The translations under genes and the position numbers were made by a program. From sequence record NZ_CP044080.1: a stretch of 64,000 nt of DNA, one strand, 5' to 3'. Positions 38,789-56,191 of the stretch are shown in pieces. The number at the start of each line of letters is the position of its first letter. Position 1 is the stretch's first letter. A model generated the notes under the pieces. It saw only the letters and a program-made list of their open reading frames with translations. It did not search any database and was not told the DNA's origin. The DNA is from a plasmid.

Positions 38789-39020
38789 GATCCGCCCCCC
38801 TGTCCCAACAGCGCCCGCAACCGTTCTACCGCCGCTTGCGGGCTCGCGAAAACAGGAATGTCCGTCGAAAGGGCGGCTTTGGCTTGTACCGGTGGGCGCG
38901 CGGCCGGGCTGGCTGCGTCAATCCGATGGAGTTCCGGGCCAGCGCCATGCTAGCCTGCCGAACCGGCAGCAGGCCAGAGTACCGCGCTTCATTGTCGCCC
39001 ACGTACAGGAAGAACCGCTC

Positions 39021-39734
39021 ATGTCCATTCGTGTCGGTGTCGCCGGCTGGTCCATACCCTCCGCGCTTGCCGGGCGGTTTCCGTCAGAAGGCACGCATCT
39101 CGAACGCTATGGCGCATGCCTTTCGGCCGTCGAGATCAACAGCAGCTTCTACCGGCCGCACCGGCGCGCGACATACGAACGCTGGGCGGCAAGCGTGCCA
39201 CCCGGGTTCCGCTTCTCGGTCAAGCTGCCGAAAGCCATCACGCATGAGCGCCGACTGGAGGACTGCACGGCGCTGGTCGAGCGCTTCGCCGAGGAAACGG
39301 GCGGCCTGGGCGACAAACGCGGTCCGATCCTGGTTCAGCTTCCCCCGAGCTTCGCCTATCCCGGCGAGCGCGCGGACCGTTTCCTTGACGAGCTGCGGAC
39401 CGCGATCACCGGGCCCATCGTGCTGGAGCCGAGACATGCCAGCTGGTTCCAGCCGGACATCGACCGCATGCTGGAGCGACGGCGGGTGTCGCGGGTTGCC
39501 GCGGACCCGGCAAAACCGCCAGCTGCCGCGCAGCCCGGTGGCTGGAGCGGGCTCGCCTATTTCCGACTGCACGGATCACCGCGGATGTACGAATCGACCT
39601 ATGGACAGGACGCCATCGAAGCCCAAGCAGAGCGCGTCGCCTCCCTCGTTCAGCGCGATATCGATGTCTGGACCGTCTACGACAACACCACCTACGGCGC
39701 GGCCACGCAGAACGCTTTGGTCCTCCCCCACTGA
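39021..39734 (+). CDS. DUF72-family protein (YecE-like)
   Basis: 238 aa. SFYRPHRRATYERWAASVPPGFRFSVKLPKAITHERRL…ILVQLPPSF is the DUF72 signature. Its stop codon lies within the left end of the downstream IS3-family element. Confidence 0.75.
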   Translation: MSIRVGVAGWSIPSALAGRFPSEGTHLERYGACLSAVEINSSFYRPHRRATYERWAASVPPGFRFSVKLPKAITHERRLEDCTALVERFAEETGGLGDKRGPILVQLPPSFAYPGERADRFLDELRTAITGPIVLEPRHASWFQPDIDRMLERRRVSRVAADPAKPPAAAQPGGWSGLAYFRLHGSPRMYESTYGQDAIEAQAERVASLVQRDIDVWTVYDNTTYGAATQNALVLPH

Positions 39735-39773
39735 AGTGGTCCGCCGTTATGTTTAGGAAACGGAGGATCGAGA

Positions 39774-40052
39774 ATGGCAAACAAACGACCGAAGCCGGAA
39801 GAGATTGTCTCGAAGTTGCGGCAGGTTGAGGTTCTGATGGGGCAAGGCTTGTCCCGTCTGGACGCGATCAGGCGTATCGGCGTTGTCGAACAGACCTATT
39901 ACCGCTGGCGCAAGCAATACGGCGGAATGGGCGTAGACCAGTTGAAAGAGCTGAAGCGCCTTCAGCAGGAGAATGAGCGGCTCAGGCGTGCGGTGTCTGA
40001 CCTGACGTTGGACAAGCTAATCCTGACGGAGGCGGCCCGGGGAAACTTCTGA
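39774..40052 (+). CDS. IS3-family transposase OrfA
   Basis: 92 aa. MANKRPKPEEIVSKLRQVEVLMGQGLSRLDAIRRIGVVEQTYYRWRKQYGGMGVDQLKELKRLQQENERLRRAVSDLTLDK is OrfA-like. Confidence 0.85.
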   Translation: MANKRPKPEEIVSKLRQVEVLMGQGLSRLDAIRRIGVVEQTYYRWRKQYGGMGVDQLKELKRLQQENERLRRAVSDLTLDKLILTEAARGNF

Positions 40053-40900
40053 GCCCCGCTCGCCGCCGGGCCTGTATTGACCATGTCCGCCGTGAGCTGG
40101 GCGTTTCCGAGCGTCGCGCCTGCCAAGTGCTTCGCCAACATCGTTCGACACAACGCAAGTTCCCGAGAGGTCGAGCGGACGAGGTCCGCCTGGCCGCCGA
40201 CATGATTGAGCTGGCCCGCCAATATGGCCGTTATGGCTATCGCCGGATTGCGGCTCTGTTGCGGGATGCCGGGTGGCAGGTGAATGACAAGCGGGTTGAG
40301 CGCTTGTGGCGGCGAGAGGGGCTGAAAGTGCCGATGAAACAGCCGAAGAAAGGGCGATTGTGGCTGAACGACGGATCCTGCGTCCGGTTGCGGCCGCAAT
40401 ACCGGGATCATGTCTGGTCGTATGATTTTGTTCATTGCCGCACCGATGATGGCAAGGTGTTCCGGACGTTGAACATCCTTGATGAGTTCAGTCGCGAATG
40501 TCTGACGATCAAGGTGCGGCGCAGGCTGAATTCGACAGACGTGATTGATGCGCTGACCGATCTGTTCATCTTGCGCGGCGTGCCCGCCTTCATCCGTTCC
40601 GACAACGGTCCGGAGTTCATTGCCCTGGCCGTTCGTGACTGGATCGGGGCGGTCGGGGCAAAAACGGCTTACATCGAACCGGGATCGCCTTGGGAAAATG
40701 GCTATTGTGAGAGCTTCAACGCCCGCTTCCGCGATGAAATGTTGAATGGGGAAGTTTTCTACAGCCTCCGTGAGGCACAGATCCTGATCGAACAGTGGAG
40801 GAAGCATTACAACACGAAACGACCGCACAGCGCATTGGGCTATCGCCCACCAGCCCCAGAAGCCTTTGTGCCGGTGGACCAAAGGCTGGTCATGCACTAA
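40040..40900 (+). CDS. IS3-family transposase OrfB (rve), -1 frame relative to OrfA
   Basis: The -1 frame opens at about 40040 with …RRRACIDHVRRELGVSERRACQVLRQHRSTQR… and continues through the DDE core (…WSYDFVH…IRSDNGPEF…YIEPGSPWENGYCESFN…). The first internal ATG is at 40127. Confidence 0.8.
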   Translation, partial: GKLLSPARRRACIDHVRRELGVSERRACQVLRQHRSTQRKFPRGRADEVRLAADMIELARQYGRYGYRRIAALLRDAGWQVNDKRVERLWRREGLKVPMKQPKKGRLWLNDGSCVRLRPQYRDHVWSYDFVHCRTDDGKVFRTLNILDEFSRECLTIKVRRRLNSTDVIDALTDLFILRGVPAFIRSDNGPEFIALAVRDWIGAVGAKTAYIEPGSPWENGYCESFNARFRDEMLNGEVFYSLREAQILIEQWRKHYNTKRPHSALGYRPPAPEAFVPVDQRLVMH

Positions 40901-40921
40901 CTTTCAAAATGGACCACTCAG

Positions 40922-41524
40922 GTGGGGCTGATCAAGAGCCCCTTCGTCACCTTCTTCGGCGCCATCGGTATCGAGGGCGCGGACGTGGTGATGAACCTGG
41001 TCGTGCTGACGGCCGTGCTGTCGTCGCTGAACGCGGGGCTTTATTCGACGGGCCGCATCCTGCATTCCATGGCGATCTCGGGCTCGGCCCCGGCGGCGCT
41101 GGCGCGGATGAACAAGGCGGGCGTGCCCTATATGGGGATCGGCGTCACGGCGGCCGTCACCGTCCTGGGGGTGGTGCTGAACGCCTTCATGCCCTCGGAT
41201 GCCTTCGAGATCGCGATCAACGTGGCCGCGCTTGGCCTGATCTGCGCCTGGGGCACCATCGTCCTGTGTCAGCTGAAGTTGTGGAACCTGTCGCGCCAGG
41301 GCCTGATCCAGCGCCCCGAGTTCCGCATGTTCGGCGCGCCCTTCACCGGCATCCTGACGCTGGCCTTCCTGCTGGGAGTCGTGGTCCTGATGGCCTTCGA
41401 CTATCCGGTCGGAACCTGGACCGTCGCCTCGCTTCTGGTGATCGTGCCGGCGCTGATCCTGGGCTGGCATCTGGCGCGGGGCCGCATCGCGGCCATCGCC
41501 GCCGCAAGCGAGGCGGGCCAGTGA
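40922..41524 (+). pseudogene. APC-family amino-acid permease (AnsP/GabP-like), C-terminal ~200 aa only; the N-terminal half is lost at the IS boundary
   Basis: [69 protein letters not shown]… matches the TM8-12 region of amino-acid permeases. The frame begins right at the IS right end. Confidence 0.65.
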
Positions 41525-42447
41525 CCGCAGATGCCGGCAAGCCCCTGGTCGCGGTCATAGCGACCGGGGGCACCATCGCCAGCCGCAAGGACGCAAGCGG
41601 GGCCGCCCAACCCGTGCTGCGCGGGCAGGACCTGCTGGACCTGCTGCCGCCCCTGGACCTGCGCCTGCGCGCGGTGGAACTGCCCGCCAAGGACAGCTCT
41701 GCCCTGACGCTGGCCGACATGCAGGCGATCAGCGACGCGGTGGGTGCGGCCCTGGCCGATCCTGCGGTCGCGGGCGTCGTGGTCCTGCACGGCACCGACG
41801 CGATGGAGGAAACCGCGCTGCTGATCGCCCTGCAGCATGGTGCGCGCGGCCCGGTCGTGCTGACCGGGGCGCAGTTCTCCGCCGACAGCGACCGGCCCGA
41901 CGGGCCCGGCAACCTGGCCGATGCCCTGCGCGCGGTGCTGGCGGGGCCGGCGGGCGTGCGGCTGGCCTTCGGCGGCCGGCTGTTGCCGGTCTGGGGGCTT
42001 TACAAGGCCGCGTCCGACCGGGCCGACGCCTTTCGCCTGGCGGTGCCGGGCGACCATCCGGTGCCGCACCTGCCCGCGTCGCTGGGGCCGCAGCGCGTCG
42101 ATCTGGTTGCGATCCATCCCGGCGCGGACGCGCTGCATCTGGACGCCAGCCTGGCCGCCGGGGCGCAAGGGATCGTGCTTGTCGCGCTGGGATCGGGCAA
42201 TGCCTCGGCCCCCGTGGCCGAGGCGGTCGCCCGCGCCCATGCGGCCGGCGTGCCCGTGGTCGTCTCCAGCCGGGTGCCGGAGGGGGTTCTGACCCCTGCG
42301 TATGGCGGCGGCGGCGGCGGCCACGACCTGATGCGGGCCGGGGCCATTCACGCCCGCATCCTGCGCCCCGGACAGGCCCGCATCCTGCTGGCGGCGCTGA
42401 TCGCGAACGGCGTCCCGCCGGACCGGATGGCGGCGCATTTCGACTGA
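41521..42447 (+). CDS. L-asparaginase (type I/II asparaginase-glutaminase family)
   Basis: GTG start. [12 protein letters not shown] is the asparaginase N-terminal signature. …[14 protein letters not shown]… and …[11 protein letters not shown]… are also present. Confidence 0.85.
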
Positions 42448-42522
42448 AACGCGGGGCAGCGCGATTGCATTCCGGGGCCTGCTGGCGCAGAACCCAGCCA
42501 AATCCTTGCCATCGGGCCGGCC

Positions 42523-43518
42523 ATGAACCCATCCTCTCCCTGGACCGCGCGGGCCCTGCAGCTTTTCGCGGCCGCGGCGATCTCGTTGATCCTTGCGGTG
42601 CAGCTTGGGCTGCAGAACCCGTTCTGGGCGGCCATGCCGGTCTGGGTCGTGGCCCAGCCGAACCGGCAGGACCTGCTGCTGCGCGCCGTGCTGCGGGTTC
42701 TGGGAACGGCATTCGGCGCAGGGATCGGCTGGCTTGTGCTGATGTCGGTGCCGGGCGACGCGGCCCGGGTCGCGGTCCTGGCGCTGGGGGTCGGGCTCGG
42801 GGCCTCGGTCGCCTTCTGGATCGGCACGGTCTACAGCTATGGCGTGATCCTGGCCGCGATCACGCTGGCGGTGGTGCTGGTGCCGGCGATGGATCATCCG
42901 GTCGATGCGGCCCATCTGGCGCTGGACCGGATCTGGTGCACGCTGATCGGTGTCGTCGCGGTGACGGTCATCACCTTCCTGTTCACCCCCCATCGCAGCG
43001 GCCCGCTGCCGCCGCGCACCGTCCCGCCGCTGGGCGATGTGATCCGCCAGGGGCTGATCGCCGCAGCGGCCGCCTTGGCGGGCGGGGCGATCCTGCATGC
43101 GGTGGGCGGACCTGCGGGGATCGCGGCGGCCCTGTCCCTGACAATCTTCAGCCTGATTCTGGGAACCTCGCGCAACCCCGCGCCGATCCTGGCCTATATG
43201 CCGCCCGGGGCCGCCGTGGGGGTGCTGGCCGCGCTGGCCTATCGGGCGCTTGACATGGCGCTGCCCGATCCGGCGGGAACCGCGCTGTGGCTGGCGCTGC
43301 CCTTCATCGCGGCGGGCGCCAGCCTGCGCAGCTATCCCCGCACCGCCCCGCTGGGACTGGACGCCAACATGTGCTTCCTGCTGGCCGCCGAGGCGGGCAC
43401 CGCCGGGCATGGCTTTGGCGCGCATCTGCAAGGCGGGCTTGCCACGGTCCTCGCAGGCTTCGCCATGGCCGGGATCTTCCGCCGCTTCGGAGCGGTGCGG
43501 GCGCCCGCGTTGAAATAA
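42523..43518 (+). CDS. FUSC-family (fusaric acid resistance / aromatic acid exporter-like) integral membrane protein
   Basis: 331 aa, polytopic. …FWAAMPVWVVAQPNRQDLLLRAVLRVLGTAFGAGIGWLVL… is typical of the FUSC/YccS family. Confidence 0.6.
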   Translation: MNPSSPWTARALQLFAAAAISLILAVQLGLQNPFWAAMPVWVVAQPNRQDLLLRAVLRVLGTAFGAGIGWLVLMSVPGDAARVAVLALGVGLGASVAFWIGTVYSYGVILAAITLAVVLVPAMDHPVDAAHLALDRIWCTLIGVVAVTVITFLFTPHRSGPLPPRTVPPLGDVIRQGLIAAAAALAGGAILHAVGGPAGIAAALSLTIFSLILGTSRNPAPILAYMPPGAAVGVLAALAYRALDMALPDPAGTALWLALPFIAAGASLRSYPRTAPLGLDANMCFLLAAEAGTAGHGFGAHLQGGLATVLAGFAMAGIFRRFGAVRAPALK

Positions 43519-43581
43519 TTGCGAGCGGTGAACCCCGCCGGGCATCCCGGTGTTCTGTCGCAAACAGAATGGGGGCTCAGC

Positions 43582-43836
43582 ATGGCAAGAATTCCGAACG
43601 ACCTGATCGCAGACCTGCGCAATGCGCTGCACGACCTGGGGGGCGCCTCGGCCGAGGCGTCCGACCTGATCCGCGAACAGTTGGGGGCCGATGCGTCGCG
43701 TGCCTTCGACGATGTGCTGGCGGCCTGCTACCAGATCGTCGAGGCCGCAGCGGAATCGCGCACACTTGCAGACCCTGGCCTGGTGCCGCCCCGGCAACTC
43801 AACGGCCAGGCCATGCGGATCGCGGCGGCGGCCTAG
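43582..43836 (+). CDS. Small hypothetical protein (84 aa)
   Basis: MARIPNDLIADLRNALHDLGGASAEASDLIREQLG… within ORF 43519..43836. No family was recognised. Confidence 0.35.
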   Translation: MARIPNDLIADLRNALHDLGGASAEASDLIREQLGADASRAFDDVLAACYQIVEAAAESRTLADPGLVPPRQLNGQAMRIAAAA

Positions 43837-44999
43837 TCCAGCGGGTCCATCACAAAGCTGGCGCCGATGCTGGACGCCAGCCGGATCAGCTGCGTCCGGT
43901 TCGCGCAATCGGCCTTGGCCAGCAGCGACTTGACCTGCGAATTGATAGTCTCGACCGAGCGGTTGCGCCGGTCCGAGATCTGGCGGTTGGTCAGCCCCTC
44001 GGCCAGCAGCCCGACCAGCCGGGTTTCCGATTGCGTCAGCGTCAGCACCTTGGCCAGCAGGTCCAGGTCCAGCGGCAGCTCCCGCCCGGTATCCAGGCTG
44101 TAGATCGCATAGCCGTCCAGCCGCCGCTCGCCAAAGGCATCGGCGGACGTCAGCGGAGAGATTTCCACCGCAAGCCGCCCGCAACTGGCCTGACGCCCGC
44201 CAAGCGCCTCTTTCCGGGGCCGGGCGCCGCAGCGGCCGTGGTCGCGCGCATCCGCCGTCATCGCGTGCAGCCATTGCCGGTCGGGCGCGGCCCGCATCTC
44301 CAGCCGCCCCGCCCCATCGCGAAAGAACACCCCCGCCGCTTCGCGCTGGCGGGCGAATTCGACGTTCTCGCAGATGATCTGGCGATCGCCCCGGATCAGG
44401 CAGACGCCGATGCGCAGCCGGTCCATGGCCTCGGCCAGGCCCGCATAGGCGGTGCTCAACTGACGCAGCGGACGGCCCAGGTGCAGGGCCTTGGCGACAT
44501 GGGGCAGGATCGTGGCCAGGGCCGCGCGCTCGGCCCCGCTCATCGGCCCGTGCCGGCGCGAGAACTGGACCGAGAAGCGGTCGCGCGACAGGTCGTCCTT
44601 GTTCAGGACGGCGCCGGCCCGGTAATGGACGCCGTGCCGGGCCATCTCTTGCGCATTGGGTCGCAGGGCCAGGGCGCTGTGCTCGGGCGCCAGGACATCG
44701 TCGCCCACGATCTCGATCCGGTCGCCGCGCGCGGAATGGCGGGCGATGATCTCCTGGTCGGCGAACTCCTCCTCGGCAAAGCGATGGATGTAGCCGTCGA
44801 CCAGAACCGGGTCGTAGGCGGCCGAGAAATGGGGCGCCCGCAGCTGACGCGCGCGCGGATCGGCCTCGTCCAGTTCAAAGATGATGCAGCCCCGCGCACC
44901 CACGGCCCGCGCGATCCGGTCAAGCACCCCAGGCCACCGACCGGCGTCCAGCACGGTGTCGTAGATGTCCAGGATGACCTGTTCGTCGGGCTCTTGCAT
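43833..44999 (-). CDS. LuxR-family transcriptional regulator (C-terminal GerE HTH; N-terminal sensory region of unknown type)
   Basis: The C-terminus …LTQSETRLVGLLAEGLTNRQISDRRNRSVETINSQVKSLLAKADCANRTQLIRLA is a LuxR/GerE HTH. It is divergent from the heme-enzyme operon. Confidence 0.75.
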   Translation of the reverse strand: MQEPDEQVILDIYDTVLDAGRWPGVLDRIARAVGARGCIIFELDEADPRARQLRAPHFSAAYDPVLVDGYIHRFAEEEFADQEIIARHSARGDRIEIVGDDVLAPEHSALALRPNAQEMARHGVHYRAGAVLNKDDLSRDRFSVQFSRRHGPMSGAERAALATILPHVAKALHLGRPLRQLSTAYAGLAEAMDRLRIGVCLIRGDRQIICENVEFARQREAAGVFFRDGAGRLEMRAAPDRQWLHAMTADARDHGRCGARPRKEALGGRQASCGRLAVEISPLTSADAFGERRLDGYAIYSLDTGRELPLDLDLLAKVLTLTQSETRLVGLLAEGLTNRQISDRRNRSVETINSQVKSLLAKADCANRTQLIRLASSIGASFVMDPLD

Positions 45000-45272
45000 C
45001 GCCGATCCCTATCCGCCCGGCCCCCTATGGTAGTCCAGTTCGCGGTCCTTGCAAAAGAAAAGCGTCGACGCCCGTTGCAGAGCAAAAATCCCCCGAACTG
45101 GTGATGCGGGACAGGGGACGGCCGCGCTAGGGTATGGTCACGGCCCGATTTCATTCAGCAAGTGCTTTGCCGATCCTTCTTCAACGGTTACGCTTCTTCC
45201 CAGCCTTACTCAGTATCCGTCGGCCGGCCGGGCAGGCTGGCCGACAATTTGACCCTTGTTCGGAACGGTTCC

Positions 45273-47135
45273 ATGCGCACGGGGAAAGCATCTTGCCTTG
45301 CGGCCGGCCTGGCCATCGCGGTTCTGCTGGCTGGCCCGGTGGCGGCCCAGCCCGAAAACGACACCCCCCCTTGCGAGGCGCGCGAGGCACTGGCCCATGC
45401 GCTGGCCCGCAACCCCGACCTGCGCTGGCCCCAGATCCGCGCCGCCTGCGACCAGCGGATCGCCGAGGCGCGGGCCGCCGACCCCGTGGGACGCGCCTGG
45501 TTTGCCAATGCGGCGAACGGGTTCGAAGGCGTTCCCCTGGTCCTGCTGAAGGTGCTGCCCGACCTCGCCCCGGAAATCTGGGGCCGGCCCGAGGACTTCT
45601 TTTCCGGTTTCGGCCTGTTTCCCGACCCGGACATTCCCGACCGCATCCTGCCGCGCGGCCTGGGGGTCGCGGGGGACGGTCGCCCCCTGGACGACCAGGG
45701 GCGGCCCCTGGGCGAAATCGACTATGGCGCAAAGGGAAAGCCGCTGTTCGTCACGCTGGCCTGCGGCGCCTGCCACAGCGGAGAGGCCGAGATCGACGGC
45801 CGCCGCATCGTCTATGACGGCGCGCCGAACACCCGGTTCGACGTGCGCAAGTGGCGGGCCGCCTTCAGCGCGCTGCGCCAGGACTATCTGTCCGACGAAC
45901 AGATCGGCACCCCGGACAAGCCGGGCGAGACCACCCGCCGGCTTCTGGCGCTGGTCGCCGCCAAGCCCGCCGGTTTCTTTGCCCGGGGACTGCCCGGCAT
46001 CCCCGAGGACCGCGTGGCCCCCGTGGACGCGGGGCAGCGCGCCATCTTTGCCGCCGCGGCCCCGCAGATCCTGTCCGCCCTGGCCAGGGGCAGCGAGGTT
46101 CGCGCGGCGGCCGTCGCGCTGCAACAACGCGCGGGGTCAAGCTATGGCCACCCGGATTCGCCCGGCCTTGCCGGCGAAAGCGCCGGCCAGTCGGACGGCA
46201 GCGGCGATCTTCTGGCAGACCTGCTGGCCGCGCAGGCGGCCGACCGGCTTGACGCCCTGCAGGCCGACCCCCTGCCCGAGGCGCTGCCGCGCTTTGCCAC
46301 GGTGACGGACATGCCGGCGGTCTGGAACCAGGCGGACCGCGCGACCGGGCAATGGGACGGCAGCGTGCTGGACCGATTCTGGCGCAACATCGCGGCCCAG
46401 TTGCCCATCGTCGGCAAGCCCGGCAGGCTGGACCTGTGGAACGCCGCGCTGGCCGGGGAATACCTGACCACCCTGCCCTCGCCGCCCTGGCCTTTTGACG
46501 TGGACCTGCCCAAGGCCGCACGGGGCGAGGCGATCTTTGCCCGGAACTGCGGCACCTGCCACCGGCCGCGCAACGACAGCCGCTATCCCCAGATCGGCAC
46601 CGATGCGAACCGCGCCCGCGTGCTGAACGCCGCCGCCAGCCAGGTGCTGTTGCAGGGGTTCCGCGCCGCCTGCCACGACCCGGATTTCCACTATCAGGAC
46701 CGGCTGGGCCGCCGCGTGGCGCCCTGCGCCATGCCCGATTACCGCATTCTGCGCGACACGGTCCGGCCGGCGAACCAGGGCTACCTGGCCCCGCCGTTGG
46801 ACGGGATCTGGCTGCGCGCGCCCTATCTGCACAACGGATCGGTCCCGACGCTGGCGCAGCTTTTGCAGCCCGCGACAAGGCCCGCGCGCTTCCTGCGCGG
46901 CGCCATCGCCTATGATGGCGCGGGCATGGGCTGGGTCTGGCAGCCTGACCAGCGCGAGCGGCTGGCGCCGCGTCATCCGACGCTGTGGGTCCACGACACG
47001 GGGCGGGACGGGCTGGGCAACGGCGGCCATGACACCGACCTGATGATCGACGGCCGCCTGCACCGGCTGGACTGGTCCGACCCCGCCCATGCGGCCGAGT
47101 TCGAGATGCTGATGGAATACCTCAAGACCCTTTGA
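45273..47135 (+). CDS. Secreted di-heme c-type cytochrome, divergent cytochrome c peroxidase/MauG-like
   Basis: Start chosen at MRTGKASCLAAGLAIAVLLAGPVAAQ (signal peptide) within ORF 45162..47135. There are two CxxCH motifs (TLACGACHSGE and RNCGTCHRPRN). A CCP-family motif lies near the C-terminus (APYLHNGSVPTLAQLL, compare CCP PYFHDGS--TL). Confidence 0.65.
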   Translation: MRTGKASCLAAGLAIAVLLAGPVAAQPENDTPPCEAREALAHALARNPDLRWPQIRAACDQRIAEARAADPVGRAWFANAANGFEGVPLVLLKVLPDLAPEIWGRPEDFFSGFGLFPDPDIPDRILPRGLGVAGDGRPLDDQGRPLGEIDYGAKGKPLFVTLACGACHSGEAEIDGRRIVYDGAPNTRFDVRKWRAAFSALRQDYLSDEQIGTPDKPGETTRRLLALVAAKPAGFFARGLPGIPEDRVAPVDAGQRAIFAAAAPQILSALARGSEVRAAAVALQQRAGSSYGHPDSPGLAGESAGQSDGSGDLLADLLAAQAADRLDALQADPLPEALPRFATVTDMPAVWNQADRATGQWDGSVLDRFWRNIAAQLPIVGKPGRLDLWNAALAGEYLTTLPSPPWPFDVDLPKAARGEAIFARNCGTCHRPRNDSRYPQIGTDANRARVLNAAASQVLLQGFRAACHDPDFHYQDRLGRRVAPCAMPDYRILRDTVRPANQGYLAPPLDGIWLRAPYLHNGSVPTLAQLLQPATRPARFLRGAIAYDGAGMGWVWQPDQRERLAPRHPTLWVHDTGRDGLGNGGHDTDLMIDGRLHRLDWSDPAHAAEFEMLMEYLKTL

Positions 47136-48106
47136 CCCTTCCCCCGCCAGGCACGAGGCCCGCCGTGATCCAGCAAGATGCCCAGACCGTCGCCGATATC
47201 CAGACCCAGATCATGCAAGCCACGGCCCCGCATTTGCGCGGGCAGCATCCCAAGATGCACGGCTGCGTCGCCGCCCTGTTCGAGGTCCTGCCGCTGCCGC
47301 CGCCGCTGGACCAGGGCCTGTTCGCCCGGCCCGCCCGGTTCGATGCGCTGGTGCGCCTTTCCAACGGCAGGGAAAGGGACGACCGCAAGCCGGATGCGCA
47401 TGGCATGGCGATCAAGCTGCTGGGTGTTGCGGGCGAAAAGGCCATGCCCGAGGCGCCCGAGGGCGAACAGGATTTCATCCTGGTGGACAACCCGGTGTTC
47501 TTCATTCGCAACGCGGCGGATTATGCCCGCTTCATGGCTCTGGTCGCTGCCGACAGGAAGGCGGAGTTCCTGGCCTATCTTCACCAGACCCACCCCGAGG
47601 ATGTTGCCGTGCTGACGTCATTCGCGCAGCACATCCAGGCCGACCCGCTGTCGGCGACCTACTGGGGACAGGTGCCCTATGCGCTGGGACCGGACCCCGC
47701 CACCGCCTGCCGCTATCGCGCGGTGCCGCGCGTGCCCGCCCCGGACGACAGCCCCGGCGCCACGCCCGATTACCTGCGCGAGCGGATGGTGGCGCGGCTG
47801 GCGCCCGAGGCGTCGCCGGTGGTCTATGACCTTCAGGTGCAACTGCGCCAGGACGCCGATGCGGCGGTGATCGAGAACCCGACCGTCGAATGGGACACCC
47901 CCTTCGTGACCGTCGGCACGCTGACCATTCCGCCCCAGGACTTCGATACGCCCGAACGCCGCGCCCGGGGCGAGGGCCTGCGCTTTTCGCCCTGGCACGC
48001 CCTGGCGGCGCATCGTCCCCTCGGAGAGATCAACGCCGTGCGGCGCGTGGTCTATCCGGCCAGCCAGGCGCTGCGCGCCGCCAGCAGCGGGAAGGCCGCG
48101 TCATGA
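47132..48106 (+). CDS. Catalase-related (small catalase-like) heme protein, possible fatty-acid hydroperoxide-converting enzyme
   Basis: 324 aa. HPKMHGCVAALFEV…ARFDALVRLSNG…DAHGMAIKL parallels the catalase core (HAKG-GAFGYFEV … RFSTV-G … DPRGFA-KF). Overlaps both neighbours by 4 nt. Confidence 0.6.
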   Translation: MTLPPPGTRPAVIQQDAQTVADIQTQIMQATAPHLRGQHPKMHGCVAALFEVLPLPPPLDQGLFARPARFDALVRLSNGRERDDRKPDAHGMAIKLLGVAGEKAMPEAPEGEQDFILVDNPVFFIRNAADYARFMALVAADRKAEFLAYLHQTHPEDVAVLTSFAQHIQADPLSATYWGQVPYALGPDPATACRYRAVPRVPAPDDSPGATPDYLRERMVARLAPEASPVVYDLQVQLRQDADAAVIENPTVEWDTPFVTVGTLTIPPQDFDTPERRARGEGLRFSPWHALAAHRPLGEINAVRRVVYPASQALRAASSGKAAS

Positions 48107-49749
48107 CCGCCACCGCCCGGCCCCACCCCCCGCGCGACACCTCGGCCGACGGCTGGGGCAACCGCCTGCAAGCCTATGCGCTAAGCCATTTTCCGGCGCT
48201 GTGGCGCGGCGTCATGGCGGTGCCGCCGCTGCGGCGCCTGGCCAACGACAAGATCGTGGACATGGCCGTGCGCCGTGCGCCCGCCCGCCCCATGGCCTTC
48301 GGCGCGATGACCGCGCGCGCAGACAGCGCGGCCAGTTGCAGCGCCGAATACACCTCGTGGGAAATGCTGACCGACCTGGGCTGGTACAAGCGCCACCTGC
48401 CGCAGGTTCCCCTGCGCACGGACCCGCCGCTTGACGACGTGGTCGCGCTGTTTCGGACCGATCCGGGCGGCGGCGTCCCGTCCGAGGACAGCAGCGTCCT
48501 TTTCATGTCCTTTGCGCAATGGTTCACCGACGGCTTCCTGATGACGGACGCGGTGGACCGGCGCCGCACCCACAGCAGCCACCAGATCGACCTGAATCCG
48601 CTTTACGGCCTGACGCGGGCCGAAACCGATGCGGTGCGCCTGCGCTCCGAGGAACGGGGGCGCCGCGGCCGGCTGAAGGTCGAGCGGATCAACGGCGAGG
48701 ACTTCGCGCCCCGGTATTACGACGACGCCGGCAACCCTCGCGCCGAATTCGGCGCGCTGCGCAAGCCGCTGCGTCTGGACGAATGGCGATCCAAGGCGCC
48801 ACCGGACCGGGACGAGGCGGTCAAGGCAACCCTGTTCGCCTTCGCGGGCGAGCGGGCGAACAGCACGCCTTATACCGCCATGCTGAACACGTTGTTCCTG
48901 CGCGAACACAACCGCCTAGCCGGCGTGATCGAGAAAGCCCACCCCGGCTGGGACGACGAGCGCGTGTTCCAGACCGCGCGCAACGTGACCATCGTCCTGC
49001 TGATCAAGATCGTGATCGAGGAATACATCAACCATATCTCGCCCTATCATTTCCAGCTGACCGCCGATCCGGCCGTCTGCTGGCGCAAGTACTGGAACCG
49101 GCAGAACTGGATTCCTTTGGAATTCAACATGCTTTATCGCTGGCACAGCCTGACGCCGGACCGCTTTGCCATAGCCGGTCAGGAGATCCTGGCAACTGAC
49201 CTGCTGTTCAATCACCAGCCGCTGGTCCAGCATGGGCTGAATGCAATGATGCAGGCGGCAAGCGACCAGCGCGCCCGCCAGATCGGGCTGTTCAACACGC
49301 CCGATTTCCTGATCCCCGTCGAGGCGAGCACCCTGCAGCAATCCCGAGACCAGCGGCTGGCCTCGTACAACGACTACCGGCAGGCCTTCGGCTATGGCCG
49401 GGTCAGGCGGTTCGACCAGATCACCGGGGATCCGCGCCGGATCGAGGCACTTCAGGCGCTTTACGGCGACGTGGATCAGGTCGAGTTCATGGTGGGACTG
49501 TTCGCCGAGGACATCTCGCCCCGCTCGGCGGTGCCGCCGCTGATCGGGCGGATGGTGGCTCTGGACGCCTTTTCGCAGGCGCTGACCAATCCCCTGATGG
49601 CGGAATGCGTGTTCACGCCGGCCACCTTTTCGGAACCCGGATGGCAGGCGATCCAGGAAACCCACCGCTTGCAGGACATTCTGGACCGCAACACGCCACC
49701 CGGGACGGCCCCGCCCCGGGTTACGATGACGCTGCCGCCCGCGACCTGA
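48103..49749 (+). CDS. Animal heme peroxidase superfamily protein, cyclooxygenase / fatty-acid dioxygenase-like
   Basis: 549 aa. SFAQWFTDGF (COX: FAQHFTHQF), HQIDLNPLYG (COX: GVDLGHIYG), AFAGERANSTPYTAMLNTLFLREHNRLA, TARNVTIVLLIKIVIEEYI and EFNMLYRWHSLTPD (COX: EFNTLYHWHPLLPD, holding the catalytic Tyr and proximal His) are all present. Confidence 0.8.
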   Translation: MTATARPHPPRDTSADGWGNRLQAYALSHFPALWRGVMAVPPLRRLANDKIVDMAVRRAPARPMAFGAMTARADSAASCSAEYTSWEMLTDLGWYKRHLPQVPLRTDPPLDDVVALFRTDPGGGVPSEDSSVLFMSFAQWFTDGFLMTDAVDRRRTHSSHQIDLNPLYGLTRAETDAVRLRSEERGRRGRLKVERINGEDFAPRYYDDAGNPRAEFGALRKPLRLDEWRSKAPPDRDEAVKATLFAFAGERANSTPYTAMLNTLFLREHNRLAGVIEKAHPGWDDERVFQTARNVTIVLLIKIVIEEYINHISPYHFQLTADPAVCWRKYWNRQNWIPLEFNMLYRWHSLTPDRFAIAGQEILATDLLFNHQPLVQHGLNAMMQAASDQRARQIGLFNTPDFLIPVEASTLQQSRDQRLASYNDYRQAFGYGRVRRFDQITGDPRRIEALQALYGDVDQVEFMVGLFAEDISPRSAVPPLIGRMVALDAFSQALTNPLMAECVFTPATFSEPGWQAIQETHRLQDILDRNTPPGTAPPRVTMTLPPAT

Positions 49750-49753
49750 GCGC

Positions 49754-49939
49754 TCAGTCGCCCTTGTGCTCGGGCTTGCCCTTGCGCTTGGTATGGGCCA
49801 TGTCCTTCAGCTCCTTCTCGGTCATGGACTTCTCCATTTCCCTGGACGCGCCGCGCAGTTCGCTTTTGGGCGTGTCCCCGCGCTTGGCCGACAGGGCGGC
49901 CCCTGCGGCCTTTTGCTGGGCCTTGGATTTGGCGGGCAT
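49754..49939 (-). CDS. DUF3008-family small lysine-rich protein
   Basis: 61 aa: MPAKSKAQQKAAGAALSAKRGDTPKSELRGASREMEKSMTEKELKDMAHTKRKGKPEHKGD. Confidence 0.55.
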   Translation of the reverse strand: MPAKSKAQQKAAGAALSAKRGDTPKSELRGASREMEKSMTEKELKDMAHTKRKGKPEHKGD

Positions 49940-49959
49940 GGCTTTGCTCCTGTTCCGAC

Positions 49960-50271
49960 TCAGCCGCGCTTGGCGCGAGCCGTTTCGGCGTTCAGATAGG
50001 GGGTCGGGCCGTCGTCGCCCTTGAGCATCGACTGCTCGACCTCGTCGGTCGAGGGTTCGGAGTTGCTGGCAAGGTCGATGCCGCTGACGGCGGCGGCCGA
50101 TGCGGCTGCGGCCGGATCCTCGGCGGTGCTGTCGGATTGCGCCGGGTCCGATCCGTCCTGCAACTCCTGTCGGGCGCGGCTCCAATGGTCCTCGGCGCGG
50201 CCCTCGGGGCGCCCCTCCTCTTCCCAAAGCTGATGGGCGCGCTGGCGGATCCTGTCTTCTTCCTGGTCCAT
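49960..50271 (-). CDS. DUF2934-family small protein
   Basis: MDQEEDRIRQRAHQLWEEEGRPEGRAEDHWSRARQEL is the DUF2934 signature. It has an acidic low-complexity tail. Confidence 0.55.
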   Translation of the reverse strand: MDQEEDRIRQRAHQLWEEEGRPEGRAEDHWSRARQELQDGSDPAQSDSTAEDPAAAASAAAVSGIDLASNSEPSTDEVEQSMLKGDDGPTPYLNAETARAKRG

Positions 50272-50289
50272 GGTCTCTCCTCCTCGGGG

Positions 50290-52347
<2,058 letters not shown>

Positions 52348-52361
52348 TCCTGTCACTCCGT

Positions 52362-53489
52362 TCAAGCCACGATGCGGCGGGTCGGGACGGCGACCGGCGC
52401 CATCAGCCGTCGCGTCGCCTCGCGCCGGTCCAGCATGGCCTGGGTGACAAGGGTGGTGCCCTGCGCATCGCGGCGGAACCAGGGCAGGTCGTCGTCCGGG
52501 TCCTCGCCCGCCACCAGCCCCGGCGGGATGCGCGTTCCGGGCGCGACGATGCAGTTGACCAGCCGGGCCGAGGCGGGGACCCACGCCCCCGGCATCATGA
52601 TGCTGCCCCGTCCCAGGGACCATTCCGCCTGAGGCGCATCCTGCGGCAGCCGGGCGGGTGCCCGGTCAAGAAAATCCAGATGCGCGCGGCGCAGCGCCGT
52701 CAGCGTGCCCACGTCGCGCCAATAGCTTTCGCCCGACGGGCCGGGGGGCAGGCGAAAGGCCGCGGCCTCGCCCCGGGCCACGGCCTCGGGGATCAGATCG
52801 TGGCCGAAATCCAGCGCCTCCGGCTGGCCGCTCAGGCGGTCGCGCAACCAGGCCGCGTCGAACAGATAGATCCCCATCGACACCAGGGCGCTGTCGGACT
52901 GACCCGGCATGGCCGGCGGATCGGCAGGCTTTTCCAGGAAGGCGGTGACGCGCCCGCCGTCATCGACCTGCATCACGCCAAAGCCCTGCGCGTCGAGCCG
53001 GGGAACGACGTCGACGGCGATGGTGACGGCGGCGCCCGAGCGTTCGTGGGCCTGCACGAGCGCGCCATAGTCCATGTCATAGATATGATCGGCGGCCAGC
53101 ACCAGGACGTGGTCCGGCCCGCATGACTCAATCCGGGACCAGTTGCAGCGCACGGCATCGGCCGTGCCGCGATAAAGCCCGCGCCCGTCGCTCAGTTCGA
53201 TCCCTCCGGCCGGGAAATGGCGGCCCCAGCGCTCCGGCAGGTGACGATGCAGCGTCGCGGGGGCGAATTGCGTGGCGACCACCAGGCGTTCCAGCCCCGA
53301 GCGCACCACGTTGGCCATGACAAAATCGACGATCCGGTTGCGGCCCGCAAAGGGCACGGCGGGCTTGCTTTCGTTCGTCGTCAGCTCATGCAGCCGGGAC
53401 CCCTGCCCCCCGGCCAGCAGGAGGGTCGCCGTAGAGTTCTGGGAAAGACGGGAACGGGTGGCAGGCAGACAGGCAAATGAATCGGTCAC
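52362..53489 (-). CDS. glgC: Glucose-1-phosphate adenylyltransferase GlgC (divergent)
   Basis: 375 aa. LLLAGGQGSRLHELTTNESKPAVPFAGRNRIVDFVMANV…YRGTADAV…LAADHIYDMDY…EKPADPP…SMGIYLF…YWRDVGT aligns along the full length of GlgC. Confidence 0.85.
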   Translation of the reverse strand: MTDSFACLPATRSRLSQNSTATLLLAGGQGSRLHELTTNESKPAVPFAGRNRIVDFVMANVVRSGLERLVVATQFAPATLHRHLPERWGRHFPAGGIELSDGRGLYRGTADAVRCNWSRIESCGPDHVLVLAADHIYDMDYGALVQAHERSGAAVTIAVDVVPRLDAQGFGVMQVDDGGRVTAFLEKPADPPAMPGQSDSALVSMGIYLFDAAWLRDRLSGQPEALDFGHDLIPEAVARGEAAAFRLPPGPSGESYWRDVGTLTALRRAHLDFLDRAPARLPQDAPQAEWSLGRGSIMMPGAWVPASARLVNCIVAPGTRIPPGLVAGEDPDDDLPWFRRDAQGTTLVTQAMLDRREATRRLMAPVAVPTRRIVA

Positions 53490-53649
53490 CGGCGAATTCC
53501 TTTGGCTTGGGGCTGAACCGCCGGCGAACCGACGGACAACCGCGCAACCCCTGTGTGAACCGCCTGTTCCCTGAAGCTATCAAATGTTTATCAGGTTTGC
53601 GTGACCCCCGGGATAGTCCCGAGGGTCGAGGGCAAGACTGTCCCGGACG

Positions 53650-54834
53650 TCAGGCGACTTCGGCAGGCGTCGGCGCGGGTTGTGCCGCCGCTGCAATGTC
53701 CTCGAGCCAAGCCACGGGCTTGAGGCCGGTACCGCGCAGGAATTCGATGTAGCGGGCGCATTTCATGGCCCGGAAACGGTCGTATTCCGCGCCGTCGAAC
53801 TTGACGAGCTGCTTGAGCCGCGCACGGGTCAGGGGCTGCTTGAGGTCCTGGGCCCGCAGATAGGGCACCCCGGTTTCGCGGCACATCTCTTCGGTGCGGG
53901 TGTCGATGGTGACGGTGCAGGCCATGCGTTCCGCCTGGATCGCCAACTGCGCCCCATGGAAGCGCGGGCCGATCAGCAGATCATGGCGGCGCAGCTCGTC
54001 CATCCAGGCAGCCACATCGTAATAGGATCGCGCATAGTTCCGCGCCCAGTCCTTGAACTGGTCGAGGGTGTAATGGGGGACGGTGTGGCGGTGGATGCGA
54101 GCCAGGGCATCGGGCTCGATCTCGTCGAACAACCCGCGCGAGATCTTGATCATGTTGCCCATCGACTGGACGATGTAGACGCCGGGGAACTGCGGGTCCA
54201 TCATCATGGCGATCAGCTGCTGCTCGATCTCACGCGTGTCGCGCCAGCTTTCGTGCCCACCTGCGACGGTGATCCGCTGCGGCAGGGGGTTCGCCTCCCA
54301 GTTCGCCTGGATGCGGCGCCCCAGGTCGGGCCGGGGGTTGATGAAATGGGAAGGGCAGCCGTTCGCCAGAGTATCGGCGCCGGTCAGCTTCTTGATCTGT
54401 TCCGAGGTGTAGGGGCCCCGGGTATAGATGTTCTGGATGCCGTGCTTGCGCCCGTTCTCGATCAGAACGTCAAGCCAGGCGCGGGTGCCCTCGGTCAGCT
54501 CGACGTCTGCGCCGAACTCTGGTGCCTGCGCACCAAGCCCGATGGCGACGATGGGCTTTTCGACCTGCGCCAAATTTTTGGCCAGCCCACCCAACTCAGT
54601 GTGCTTGCCAAGCTGGTTAGCGCCGGGAAAAACAACGAAGTCGACGCGCTCGTTCAGAACCTCTCGCTTGGTATGCCAAGGGAAATACTCGATCTCGGCA
54701 TCAATCTGGCTTTTGATAGCATGAACAAAAGCCAAGTTGCCGTTGTTGTGCCCGACTTGCCTGTAAAGGGTGTTGAAATTGGTGTTCGCGTAAAGCCCGC
54801 AGTTTTCGCTTTCCCACAAAAGGCCGATCTTCAT
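53650..54834 (-). CDS. Polysaccharide pyruvyl transferase-like protein (tentative), lower-GC gene
   Basis: 394 aa. MKIGLLWESENCGLYANTNFNTLYRQVGHNNGNLAFVHAIKSQI…VDFVVFPGANQLG resembles PS_pyruv_trans N-termini. GC is about 52-55% against a ~68% background. Confidence 0.45.
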   Translation of the reverse strand: MKIGLLWESENCGLYANTNFNTLYRQVGHNNGNLAFVHAIKSQIDAEIEYFPWHTKREVLNERVDFVVFPGANQLGKHTELGGLAKNLAQVEKPIVAIGLGAQAPEFGADVELTEGTRAWLDVLIENGRKHGIQNIYTRGPYTSEQIKKLTGADTLANGCPSHFINPRPDLGRRIQANWEANPLPQRITVAGGHESWRDTREIEQQLIAMMMDPQFPGVYIVQSMGNMIKISRGLFDEIEPDALARIHRHTVPHYTLDQFKDWARNYARSYYDVAAWMDELRRHDLLIGPRFHGAQLAIQAERMACTVTIDTRTEEMCRETGVPYLRAQDLKQPLTRARLKQLVKFDGAEYDRFRAMKCARYIEFLRGTGLKPVAWLEDIAAAAQPAPTPAEVA

Positions 54835-54934
54835 TCTCGCGTCTCCTTATAGATTGCGATCCGGGTTGCCGTGGCGCGCGTCGCCAGCGGTTGCTTTATT
54901 GTTTTGAATTGCCATCTCACCCGATTCCGGACCT

Positions 54935-56191
54935 TCACGCCGCCCCCTCGCGCAGGACCCGCGCCGGGGTCAAGCCGCAGGCCTCCACCCACTCGGCGTG
55001 GAAGCCAGCAAGGTCCAGCGGCGGGGTGATCCGGGCCTTGTGGTCGCGCAGCACATCGGGGCGGGCGTGGACCGACAAAATCGCCTGGGCCAGCGACGCG
55101 GGGTCGGCGGTGCGGAACGGGATGCCCCAGCCTGCGGTCTTCTCGGCCATGCCGCCGATGTCCGAGGCGATCATGGGCGTGACCGCCGCGCGCGCCTCCT
55201 GGATCACCACGGGGCTGTTCTCCCACCACACCGAGGGAATGACGATCCAGCCGTAGCCCCGCATGATGTCGACGCAATCCTGCGGGCGATAGCGGCCGCG
55301 AAAGCGCACACAGTCGGGAATTTCCAGCTTGGGCCAGAGCCGGGTGAAGCCTTCTTCGTCGACGCCGTGGATCTCGATGTCCAGGGGCACCTCGGTCTCG
55401 GGCATGCCGGCCTCGATCAGGGCGGCAGCCCGGATCAGCACGTCCAGGCCCTTGGTCGGCGTGGCCTGGCCGAAGAAGGCGAAGCGGCCGGACTTGGCCA
55501 GCAGCTCGGCCTCGGTCTCGGGGGGGTATTCGGCGTGGTGGTCCAGGCCGTTCTCGATCACCGCGATGCGGCCGGGCGCGATGCCCCAGTCCTCGAAGCG
55601 GTCGCGCAGGAACTCGCTGGGCGACAACAGGTGGTCGAACAGGTCCAGCATCTCGATCATGCGCGCCTTGCGCAGCACGAAATCGACCGGCGGCCGGCCG
55701 AGGCAGGCTGCGCAGGCCACCTCGGCCGAGGCATGGCACAGTTCGCCCGAACGCTTGACCATCTGGCCGTGATTGGCGCAGATCGCCGTCAACTCGTGCA
55801 GGGTGCAGATGAACCGCGCCTTGGGCAGGGCCGCGCGAAGCCGCCGGATGGTGCCCGCGCCGATGTTCCAGAAATGATGAAAGTGATAGACCTCGGCCTG
55901 GAAGGCGGACAGGAATTCGACGATCCAGTCCTCGTCCTCGATCCGGGCCTGCTCCATCTGGAAGGCGTCCATGCCGCGCCCCTGCAGGCAGAAGTCGCGC
56001 GGGTCGAAGCTGATGACCTGCTGGCCGGGGCCGAAGAACTTGGCGCTGTCCTCGGGACCGATGGTCGAGCCGACGAAATAGGCGTCCTCGCCCAGGGACA
56101 GCAGGTGCTGGAACTGGCGATAGGCCGCAACTTCGCCGCCGCCGTAGCGCAGGTTCGGGTGGGAATGGGATACAACGACGATCCGGGTCAT
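54935..56191 (-). CDS. Glycosyltransferase family 4 (GT-B, GT1 clan)
   Basis: Start at MTRIVVVSHSHPNLRYGGGEVAAYRQ within ORF 54935..57181. The C-terminal half has the EX7E-type motif region (…VIPSVWWENSPVVIQEARAAVTPMIASDIGGMAE…). Confidence 0.75.
   Translation of the reverse strand: MTRIVVVSHSHPNLRYGGGEVAAYRQFQHLLSLGEDAYFVGSTIGPEDSAKFFGPGQQVISFDPRDFCLQGRGMDAFQMEQARIEDEDWIVEFLSAFQAEVYHFHHFWNIGAGTIRRLRAALPKARFICTLHELTAICANHGQMVKRSGELCHASAEVACAACLGRPPVDFVLRKARMIEMLDLFDHLLSPSEFLRDRFEDWGIAPGRIAVIENGLDHHAEYPPETEAELLAKSGRFAFFGQATPTKGLDVLIRAAALIEAGMPETEVPLDIEIHGVDEEGFTRLWPKLEIPDCVRFRGRYRPQDCVDIMRGYGWIVIPSVWWENSPVVIQEARAAVTPMIASDIGGMAEKTAGWGIPFRTADPASLAQAILSVHARPDVLRDHKARITPPLDLAGFHAEWVEACGLTPARVLREGAA

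Follow-up and report, generated by a model that had tools for sequence, protein, structure and literature searches.

A candidate oxylipin-type operon of three haem proteins on a plasmid of Paracoccus yeei

Characterised bacterial oxylipin systems are very few, namely the 10S-dioxygenase (10S-DOX) and lyase of Nostoc punctiforme, the cyanobacterial fusions of an allene oxide synthase (AOS) with a lipoxygenase (LOX) and the diol synthase of Pseudomonas aeruginosa. In N. punctiforme, 10S-DOX (UniProt B2J5P4, 542 aa) acts together with a catalase-related 10S-hydroperoxide lyase encoded next to it (Brash et al., JBC 2014, as quoted in PMC13049297), work that has also been used in PMC9579011, and the pairing of a dioxygenase with a catalase-related protein is thereby established. 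In P. aeruginosa, two RoxA-like di-haem proteins act as a fatty-acid dioxygenase and a hydroperoxide isomerase, PA2077 being an oleate 10S-DOX and PA2078 a 7,10-diol synthase ('FadCcp'), and RoxA itself cleaves poly(cis-1,4-isoprene) (PMC4496055). Bacterial 'cyclooxygenases' were described as putative sequences in a 2015 review (PMC4420034). Here we describe a cluster of three haem-protein genes, g1, g2 and g3, at positions 45273-49749 of a 64,000-nucleotide stretch of plasmid DNA (record NZ_CP044080.1; hereafter the window), encoding a predicted exported RoxA-like di-haem cytochrome, a small catalase-related protein and a cyclooxygenase (COX)-like haem dioxygenase. The cluster may constitute a plasmid-borne operon for oxylipin-type fatty-acid oxygenation in which g3 acts first and g2 second, together with g1, an interpretation towards which we lean slightly. 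The best-supported new point is the functional link between g1 and g2.

The window can be assigned to a Paracoccus yeei plasmid: g1, g2, g3 and a divergent regulator show 97-100% amino acid identity to their counterparts on three complete P. yeei plasmids that come from human isolates (tblastn against a plasmid collection), the regulator being 100% identical across P. yeei plasmids. As established from a list of open reading frames (ORFs) and from motif checks, the three haem-protein ORFs are intact and co-directional, lying on the forward strand together with all of their features given below. These are g1 (45273-47135, 620 aa), g2 (47165-48106, 313 aa when read from GTG 47165, or 324 aa from TTG 47132) and g3 (48103-49749, 548 aa), while the regulator (43833-44999, reverse strand, 388 aa), of the LuxR/GerE helix-turn-helix (HTH) type, is separated from g1 by a divergent intergenic region of 273 bp (45000-45272). 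An earlier sequence-only reading had described three haem-enzyme genes and a divergent regulator here, and their presence is confirmed by the ORF list, the motifs and RefSeq. On a near-identical P. yeei plasmid, RefSeq gives agreeing coordinates for g1, g3 and the regulator, naming them 'hypothetical protein', 'peroxidase family protein' and 'helix-turn-helix transcriptional regulator', and g2 'catalase family protein'. Of the 4-nt start/stop overlaps reported at both junctions, the one between g2 and g3 (ATGA, 48103-48106) is secure; the one between g1 and g2 requires the TTG start at 47132, which has no Shine-Dalgarno sequence. The GTG at 47165 is preferred as the g2 start because of a GAGG located 8-11 nt upstream, an N-terminal length that matches the homologues and its use by RefSeq, making a 29-nt gap more likely than an overlap. 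Whichever g2 start holds, the arrangement is operon-like. Profile searches of the kind proposed in the sequence-only reading match g3 to An_peroxidase and g1 to RoxA-like_Cyt-c, with g2 staying below the threshold for Catalase.

The g3 protein matches the Pfam family An_peroxidase (PF03098) with an E-value of 1.6e-45 (156 bits against a cut-off of 25), in agreement with the animal haem peroxidase fold and YRWH motif ascribed to it earlier. Its best solved relatives are COX-2 (5kir, E 3.7e-61) and COX-1, within a range of 4e-61 to 1e-53, whereas peroxinectin, lactoperoxidase and plant alpha-dioxygenase lie far behind at 1e-18 to 1e-11 (about 1e-15 for alpha-dioxygenase). The YRWH motif occupies residues 345-348 (49135-49146) and contains the putative catalytic Tyr345 and proximal His348; when aligned with COX-2, LY345RWH348 corresponds to LYHWH (Tyr385, His388) and EEY308I to EDY348V, the central Tyr308 being the equivalent of COX Tyr348. 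The COX-2 segment FAQHFTHQF corresponds to FAQWFTDGF in g3, within which the FTDGF motif (F141-T-D143-G-F, 48523-48537) places Asp143 where the distal His207 lies. Residues Q139, D143, Y308, Y345 and H348 are invariant in 24 homologues sharing 50-79% identity. In Nostoc 10S-DOX, F143tdsF replaces the F205thqF of COX, and further motifs have been listed in the central (IMxxY305IxxIT310Py) and terminal (ARxI483GxDAFxQA) parts of the protein, as quoted in PMC13049297. The corresponding g3 motifs, FTD[GS]F, I[VM]xxYIxxI[ST]PY and GRxxxxDAFxQA, match those given there, with the central and terminal ones reproduced nearly residue for residue and with near-equal numbering.

The notion that g3 might be a defective peroxidase, its distal His having been replaced by Asp, was rejected: Asp143 is invariant in the family and listed for the characterised and active Nostoc 10S-DOX, and so constitutes no defect. 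The alignments make g3 a member of a bacterial COX-like dioxygenase clade and not an animal-type COX, considering that His207 is replaced by Asp143 and that the alignment begins at about COX-2 residue 58, hence without the epidermal growth factor (EGF) region. Matches to the g3 family have been found in at least 574 species-representative genomes, many of them alphaproteobacterial, with Alphaproteobacteria, Planctomycetota, Cyanobacteria, Actinomycetota and Chloroflexota represented. Given this spread over several phyla, a COX-like gene is not unusual in an alphaproteobacterium, and the sequence-only reading was mistaken on this point.

For g2, residue numbers count from TTG 47132. The protein scores weakly against Pfam Catalase (17.2 bits, cut-off 25) and, when searched alone by sequence, reaches only E 0.6 against the coral allene oxide synthase (cAOS, 1u5u). 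Its homologues number in the hundreds, are 320-360 aa long and are annotated 'catalase family protein'; when searched against the PDB, the family profile retrieves MAP-2744c (3e4w, E 1.3e-18), followed by true catalases. The AlphaFold2 (AF2) model (pLDDT 91.9) matches 3e4y in Foldseek with E 5e-16 and TM-scores of 0.69/0.73, while a TM-score of 0.71 at 19% identity is reached with cAOS 1u5u and a TMt of only about 0.45 with true catalases. The distal His39, found in RGQHPK (R36-G-Q-H39), and the proximal Tyr308, found in R304-R-V-V-Y308 (RxxxY), are invariant in 27-30 homologues, and the RxS haem-propionate motif is likewise invariant among homologues. Sequence and model together identify g2 as a complete catalase-related haemoprotein of about 33 kDa without the C-terminal domains of catalases. 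It is neither a true monofunctional catalase, as it falls below the Pfam gathering score and has 313-324 aa against about 480 aa or more, nor a coral-type AOS, given the E-value of 0.6 and a Gln-His rather than a Thr-His pair. The catalase-core-like character noted earlier thus holds in the form of a mini-catalase fold, with 313 aa preferred to 324 aa as the length. The possibility that g2 is a fragment of a conventional catalase was dismissed, since the full catalase core is present, the family consists of proteins of 320-360 aa and all haem-ligand residues are kept. Signal-peptide-like N-terminal sequences occur on the g2-type mini-catalases P0028, P0039, P0041 and P0080, from Leptolyngbya and other bacteria, so that some family members may be exported, unlike P. 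yeei g2.

The first gene, g1, begins with a putative Sec signal peptide (aa 1-25, 45273-45347; N-terminus MRTGKASCLAAGLAIAVLLAGPVAA/QP, judged by eye) and carries two CxxCH haem-binding motifs, CGACH (aa 164-168, 45762-45776) and CGTCH (aa 426-430, 46548-46562), as well as the cytochrome c peroxidase (CCP)/MauG motif PYLH520NGS (46821-46841). Its match to Pfam RoxA-like_Cyt-c (PF21419) has an E-value of 1.2e-19, and it scores 127 bits against NCBIfam NF040606 (di-haem cytochrome c peroxidase; cut-off 150). Scores against the NCBIfam equivalogs RoxA, RoxB and RoxC are 41, 45 and 62 bits, with cut-offs of 900-1000. The AF2 model (pLDDT 86) has RoxA (4b2n) as its sole significant PDB fold match (E 5.5e-9, TM-score 0.41, 16% identity). 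The g1 family comprises 418 clusters at E <= 1e-30 and has a second invariant His, His586, which is likely the second axial ligand of haem 2, and no invariant Met. Profile and model place g1 in the RoxA-like branch of the di-haem CCP/MauG superfamily. The motifs and the signal-peptide-like N-terminus on which the sequence-only reading called g1 a secreted CCP-like protein have been recovered, while a generic CCP electron carrier has given way to a RoxA-like protein. The large g1-family fusions P0344, P0401, P0455, P0463, P0469 and P0477 showed no informative extra domains.

The association of the three genes was assessed in the 80 closest species-level g3 loci, with profile searches within 10 kb. 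A g2-type gene occurs in 13 of these loci, usually directly adjacent, and four of the 13 have a close g1 as well; two of the 80 have only a distant di-haem gene. Colinear trios are found in Rhodovulum kholense, R. visakhapatnamense, an Amaricoccus metagenome-assembled genome, Roseibium sp. M-1, Mesorhizobium sp. M0296 and locus L167, while in Methylobacterium oryzisoli a g1-g2 pair lies about 5 kb from g3 on the opposite strand. In a neighbour-joining tree of g3, the trio loci group with P. yeei, which falls in a clade of 12 members, seven with g2 upstream and six with both g1 and g2. The view of the trio as a functionally linked set, with fatty acids as its most plausible substrates, therefore stands, given colinearity in five or more further genomes or contigs, fusion of g2 and g3 in a protein of 872 aa, the dioxygenase residues kept by g3 and the completeness of g2 as a mini-catalase. 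Of the g1 relatives that are full-length or of high identity and have sequence downstream (pNGR234a and nine metagenome contigs, often without g3), all ten carry a g2-type and/or cAOS-like gene directly after g1. By gene neighbourhood, the constant partner of g1 is g2, not g3. Five cyanobacterial loci (four from Scytonema, one from Nostocaceae) were also found in which the gene right after the DOX homologue is of the g2 type, at about 450 bits, and not of the cAOS type; single-domain g2 genes adjoin g3 in L164, L023 and L040 as well.

Additional genes have been observed at some of these loci. Beside the g2-g3 pair of L164, two adjacent An_peroxidase ORFs of 312 and 318 aa (2774-4665) lie on the opposite strand and may represent a second haem peroxidase, split or frameshifted. 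In M. oryzisoli (L029, 8725-11593), a cytochrome P450 ORF is located directly upstream of the g3 homologue, slightly overlapping it, an arrangement in separate genes that parallels the dioxygenase-P450 fusions of fungi (linoleate diol synthases), and an 802-aa caspase-domain (Peptidase_C14) ORF stands between this unit and the g1-g2 pair. In pNGR234a of Sinorhizobium fredii NGR234 (L082, 8004-15858), the g1 homologue y4iM is in pieces beside IS66 and IS21, and after it come genes for a 'catalase' and a cAOS-like 'hypothetical protein', then a second gene of the di-haem cytochrome c peroxidase family and one for a patatin-like phospholipase; y4iM is intact in S. fredii HH103 (P0243). Several g1 loci have a second, divergent di-haem paralogue alongside.

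Gene fusions give unusually direct evidence of the enzymes working together. In P0155, a protein of 872 aa found on four contigs from two samples and encoded directly downstream of a g1 homologue, a g2-like domain is joined to a g3-like domain through a Gly-rich linker. In P0470, P0473 and an ORF of L104, a g2-like domain lacking a signal peptide is followed by a RoxA-like di-haem domain, with a hydrophobic helix between the two, a layout which implies that the mini-catalase lies in the cytoplasm and is anchored to a cytochrome in the periplasm. The predicted topology of the P0470 type matches that of the separate P. yeei proteins, among which only g1 carries a signal peptide. The new element of this locus is this conserved association of a RoxA-like di-haem cytochrome with a mini-catalase, supported by fusion and by membrane-spanning topology.

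In the closest relatives of the trio, the middle gene encodes a two-domain protein of about 665 aa (L001, 7958-9952; L162, 7948-9954; L163, 7632-9635; L083, 8572-10611), the N-terminal half being of the g2 type and the C-terminal half a coral-AOS homologue that matches 1u5u over its full length (E 1.3e-30) and has the Thr-His pair (rgTHT). No description of this tandem catalase-related architecture was found in the literature searched. The g2 of P. yeei is 61-64% identical to the fused N-terminal domains and about 51% identical to single-domain relatives, which makes it likeliest that the P. yeei lineage has lost the cAOS-like half; on this comparison, the P. yeei cluster is a reduced form of a richer module. 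Patatin-like phospholipases adjoin the module in pNGR234a, Mesorhizobium and L169, with one fused to a g2-like protein (P0044), and their recurrence indicates lipid-derived substrates. In L169 (4759-10275), the gene for a mini-catalase-transmembrane-di-haem fusion is followed by genes for a 741-aa protein without a Pfam match, an EcKL/APH kinase-like protein and a 728-aa patatin.

With regard to regulation, the only Pfam match of the divergent regulator is its GerE HTH (aa 320-375, 43875-44042, reverse strand; 1.4e-7), the N-terminal part of about 310 aa having no Pfam or PDB match and the PDB matches being confined to the HTH. As no N-terminal domain is recognisable, it is not counted among autoinducer-binding LuxR proteins and is classed from its sequence as a LuxR-C-terminal-type regulator, not a demonstrable autoinducer (acyl-homoserine lactone, AHL) receptor. 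Homologues of 38-46% identity adjoin a g3 homologue divergently in a Roseobacter genome (L044) and a RoxA-like 'di-heme-cytochrome C peroxidase' gene divergently on a Ruegeria pomeroyi megaplasmid, and lie directly upstream of a RoxA-like di-haem gene in Rhizobium sp. WL3. This recurrent neighbourhood lends moderate support to control of the operon, which the regulator probably exerts; the proposal of LuxR control made earlier is retained with this support. A candidate operator is formed by two 11-nt arms, GTCGGCCGGCC / GGCTGGCCGAC, that make up an inverted repeat around a 5-nt spacer (45219-45245, 28-54 nt upstream of the g1 ATG). Comparison of the P. yeei and L044 regulator intergenic regions gave no obvious common operator, and a sigma-70 consensus scan of 43600-50400 gave no promoter, with terminator-like sites at chance level. 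At the R. pomeroyi DSS-3 megaplasmid (L171, 2654-6155) and Rhizobium sp. WL3 plasmid (L172, 4974-8201) loci, the regulator homologues are 42-46% identical and the di-haem cytochromes belong to a different RoxA-like subfamily of about 640 aa, 22-24% identical to g1 and 58% to each other; the WL3 pair is flanked by S8 and S53 peptidases.

The genes flanking the operon on both sides, as annotated for L081, have no relation to lipids. The upstream side (about 36000-43800) encodes an IclR regulator, 3-oxoacid CoA-transferase A and B and the pcaF thiolase, as well as an amino-acid permease, an asparaginase-domain protein and an FUSC-family protein. Downstream (49750-55000) are DUF3008, DUF2934, glgX, a nucleotidyltransferase and polysaccharide pyruvyl- and glycosyl-transferases. 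The G+C content is about 0.64 in the 3' half of g3 and about 0.70-0.73 upstream.

The oxylipin-type pathway that we favour would proceed as follows. As a cytoplasmic or monotopic haem-b dioxygenase, g3 would form a radical on Tyr345 at the His348-ligated haem, take a hydrogen from an unsaturated fatty acid of the C18 type and insert O2 to give a hydroperoxide, in the manner of Nostoc 10S-DOX, the characterised enzyme from whose homology this step is derived. The Tyr308-ligated g2, translationally coupled to g3, would then rearrange, cleave or reduce this hydroperoxide by chemistry that may be of the lyase, AOS-like or peroxidase kind. From the periplasmic face of the membrane, the Sec-exported g1 would work with g2, its most likely activity on the shared lipid pool being, as RoxA and PA2077/PA2078 suggest, that of an oxygenase, isomerase or peroxidase; the functional linkage comes from genomics, while the chemistry is what we infer. 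The divergent LuxR-type regulator would control the operon. The transfer of a g3 hydroperoxide to g2 is held with higher confidence, and any specific role for g1 with lower. A sequential fatty-acid oxygenation pathway, as first proposed, is thus supported in outline; the pairing of a catalase-related enzyme with a COX-like dioxygenase does not constitute a new kind, having its precedent in Nostoc. The sequence-only reading had allowed that it would fail if g2 proved to be a catalase fragment, if the trio were not conserved elsewhere or if g3 lacked dioxygenase residues in a proper alignment; g2 is no such fragment, the trio is co-conserved elsewhere and the residues of g3 are kept.

A number of observations weigh against this pathway. 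Paracoccus fatty acids are mainly monounsaturated, which bears on the natural substrate, and g3 is only 44-46% identical to its cyanobacterial homologues, which bears on substrate and regiospecificity. Neither g1 nor g2 is found near 65 of the 80 g3 loci, indicating that g3 generally has no need of them. With g1 exported and signal peptides lacking on g2 and g3, the three cannot make up a simple soluble three-step pathway. Neither the window nor the three complete P. yeei plasmids that bear the operon contain the cAOS-like half found in the closest relatives. In g2, the position of catalase Asn148 and cAOS Asn137 is taken by Val118 in a linear alignment, with Asp119 and Asn120 adjacent, and the distal pair is Gln-His, compared with Ala-His in the cyanobacterial homologues and Thr-His in cAOS; with the distal Asn lacking a linear counterpart and the pair being Gln-His, the chemistry of g2 may differ from that of the Nostoc lyase. 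Mutation of that distal Asn has been reported to affect rate, not chemistry (Gao et al., 2008, as cited in PMC5617202). The likeness to Nostoc itself is drawn from motifs that a review quotes and from further cyanobacterial loci. Lastly, the motif spacing of g1 (His168, His430, His520) differs from that of PA2077 (His130, His375, His553), and among the best 150 of 4491 matches to the g1 profile there was no protein with the PA2077/PA2078 motif pattern, leaving the idea of g1 as a PA2077/PA2078 orthologue unsupported.

A wider reading is put forward tentatively, as one that we would sooner doubt than accept. The locus could represent an undescribed and widespread membrane-spanning machine for lipid oxygenation, with a g1-g2 core fed by patatins, optional COX-like and coral-AOS-like modules and oxylipin products that would be sensed by the LuxR-type regulator, possibly bearing on host interaction in P. 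yeei. The constant core of such a module would be the RoxA-like di-haem cytochrome and the mini-catalase, not the COX-like gene.

The three proteins could alternatively serve in peroxide defence, with g1 as a periplasmic CCP, g2 as a peroxidase of organic or lipid hydroperoxides and g3 as a haem peroxidase, clearing H2O2 and lipid hydroperoxides from either side of the membrane instead of producing oxylipins. This account, which we consider unlikely, draws on the place of g1 within the CCP/MauG superfamily, on MAP-2744c as the closest solved relative of g2 and on the tethering of a cytoplasmic mini-catalase to a periplasmic di-haem domain, an arrangement suited to two-sided membrane protection. 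It fits poorly with g3, which lacks the distal His of the superfamily's peroxidases while keeping the dioxygenase Tyr and His, and whose nearest characterised relative is a dioxygenase. In g1, the presence of His586 and the lack of an invariant Met point to a RoxA-like bis-His haem 2 and not to the His/Met haem of a CCP, and its only fold match is the oxygenase RoxA. Fusion with a cAOS homologue and the association with patatins also favour substrate-specific lipid chemistry.

It is less probable still that the g1-g2 core cleaves C=C bonds in the manner of RoxA in polyisoprenoids, carotenoids, quinone tails or hydrocarbons, with g3 as a passenger. The activity of RoxA, the sole structural relative of g1, on poly(cis-1,4-isoprene) (PMC4496055) would be in line with such substrates, as would the fact that most g1-g2 loci have no g3 and most g3 loci no g1-g2. 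A passenger role is hard to reconcile with the fusion of g2 and g3 downstream of a g1 homologue; patatin-like phospholipases repeatedly adjoin the module, the only substrates known for cAOS-like domains are fatty-acid hydroperoxides, and g1, which shares only 16% identity with RoxA, does not reach the NCBIfam cut-offs for RoxA, RoxB and RoxC. That the P. yeei cluster is an eroding remnant, its ancestral pathway broken by loss of the cAOS half and the rest no longer a working unit, is very improbable, since the closeness of g2 (61-64%) to the N-terminal halves of two-domain proteins of about 665 aa and the missing cAOS-like half in the window and three complete P. yeei plasmids are set against three intact ORFs with every family-invariant catalytic residue, 97-99% conservation of the operon proteins among four P. 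yeei strains, a deletion that left a clean ATGA-coupled g2/g3 junction and the occurrence of single-domain g2 beside g3 in L164, L023, L040 and cyanobacteria.

The locus joins three enzyme types, a COX-like dioxygenase, a catalase-related hydroperoxide enzyme and a RoxA-like di-haem protein, in one conserved module. Its three genes provide a compact test bed, carried by a plasmid of a human opportunist that can be cultured, and relatives with an additional coral-type AOS domain occur in symbiotic and marine Alphaproteobacteria. Should a di-haem lipid oxygenase or isomerase prove to be coupled across the membrane to a mini-catalase, this would constitute a new pathway architecture; if not, the operon would be a further case of the Nostoc pair, in a new phylum. 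Literature searches on the trio, on mini-catalases and on P. yeei turned up no description of a g1-g2-g3 cluster, and none of the association between a RoxA-like di-haem cytochrome and a mini-catalase.

Among the known systems, the Nostoc 10S-DOX and lyase share with the P. yeei operon a COX-like dioxygenase of about 545 aa with FTDxF, Tyr-x-x-His and a central Tyr, encoded next to a small catalase-related haemoprotein, and P. yeei g2 is of the same type as the gene following DOX in the Scytonema and Nostocaceae loci. The two differ in gene order, g2 preceding g3 in P. yeei while the DOX comes first in cyanobacteria, and in sequence, with 44-46% identity for g3 and 33-35% for g2 to the cyanobacterial homologues and with Gln-His and Asp-Asn in g2 where the cyanobacterial proteins have Ala-His and Asn-His. 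P. yeei also has a third gene, the RoxA-like g1, and its putative operon is hosted by an alphaproteobacterial plasmid. In the AOS-lipoxygenase fusion of Plexaura homomalla (1u5u / 3dy5), a catalase-related haem domain is likewise coupled to the oxygenase that makes its hydroperoxide, P0155 being the haem-dioxygenase counterpart of this fusion, and relatives of the operon carry the cAOS homologue with its Thr-His motif. The P. yeei oxygenase is a haem COX-like protein and not a non-haem-iron lipoxygenase, however, and the window has no cAOS-like domain, g2 resembling cAOS at the fold level only. The resemblance of prostaglandin H synthases (PGHS-1/PGHS-2) to g3 extends from the membrane-binding helices to the C-terminus and includes the equivalents of Gln203, Tyr348, Tyr385 and His388; with Asp in place of the distal His207 and no EGF domain in g3, prostaglandin-type chemistry is not to be assumed.

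The mycobacterial protein MAP-2744c (Mycobacterium avium subsp. paratuberculosis, 3e4w / 3e4y) has the same catalase core of about 300-320 residues as g2, with distal His and proximal Tyr, at only 22-23% identity, and no pairing with a dioxygenase is known for it. Pakhomova et al. are said to have found, in 2009, organic-hydroperoxide peroxidase activity in this protein. RoxA of Xanthomonas sp. 35Y (4b2n) shares with g1 the RoxA-like_Cyt-c domain and probably a bis-His C-terminal haem, at an identity of 16% and a TM-score of 0.41, and the context of g1 is related to lipids, not to rubber degradation. PA2077 and PA2078 resemble g1 in belonging to the RoxA branch of the CCP/MauG superfamily as di-haem c-type proteins of the periplasm, in their size of about 620-635 aa and in having two CxxCH motifs together with PY[LF]HNGSVP; a catalase-related or COX-like partner such as those encoded beside g1 has not been described for the Pseudomonas PA2077/PA2078 operon.

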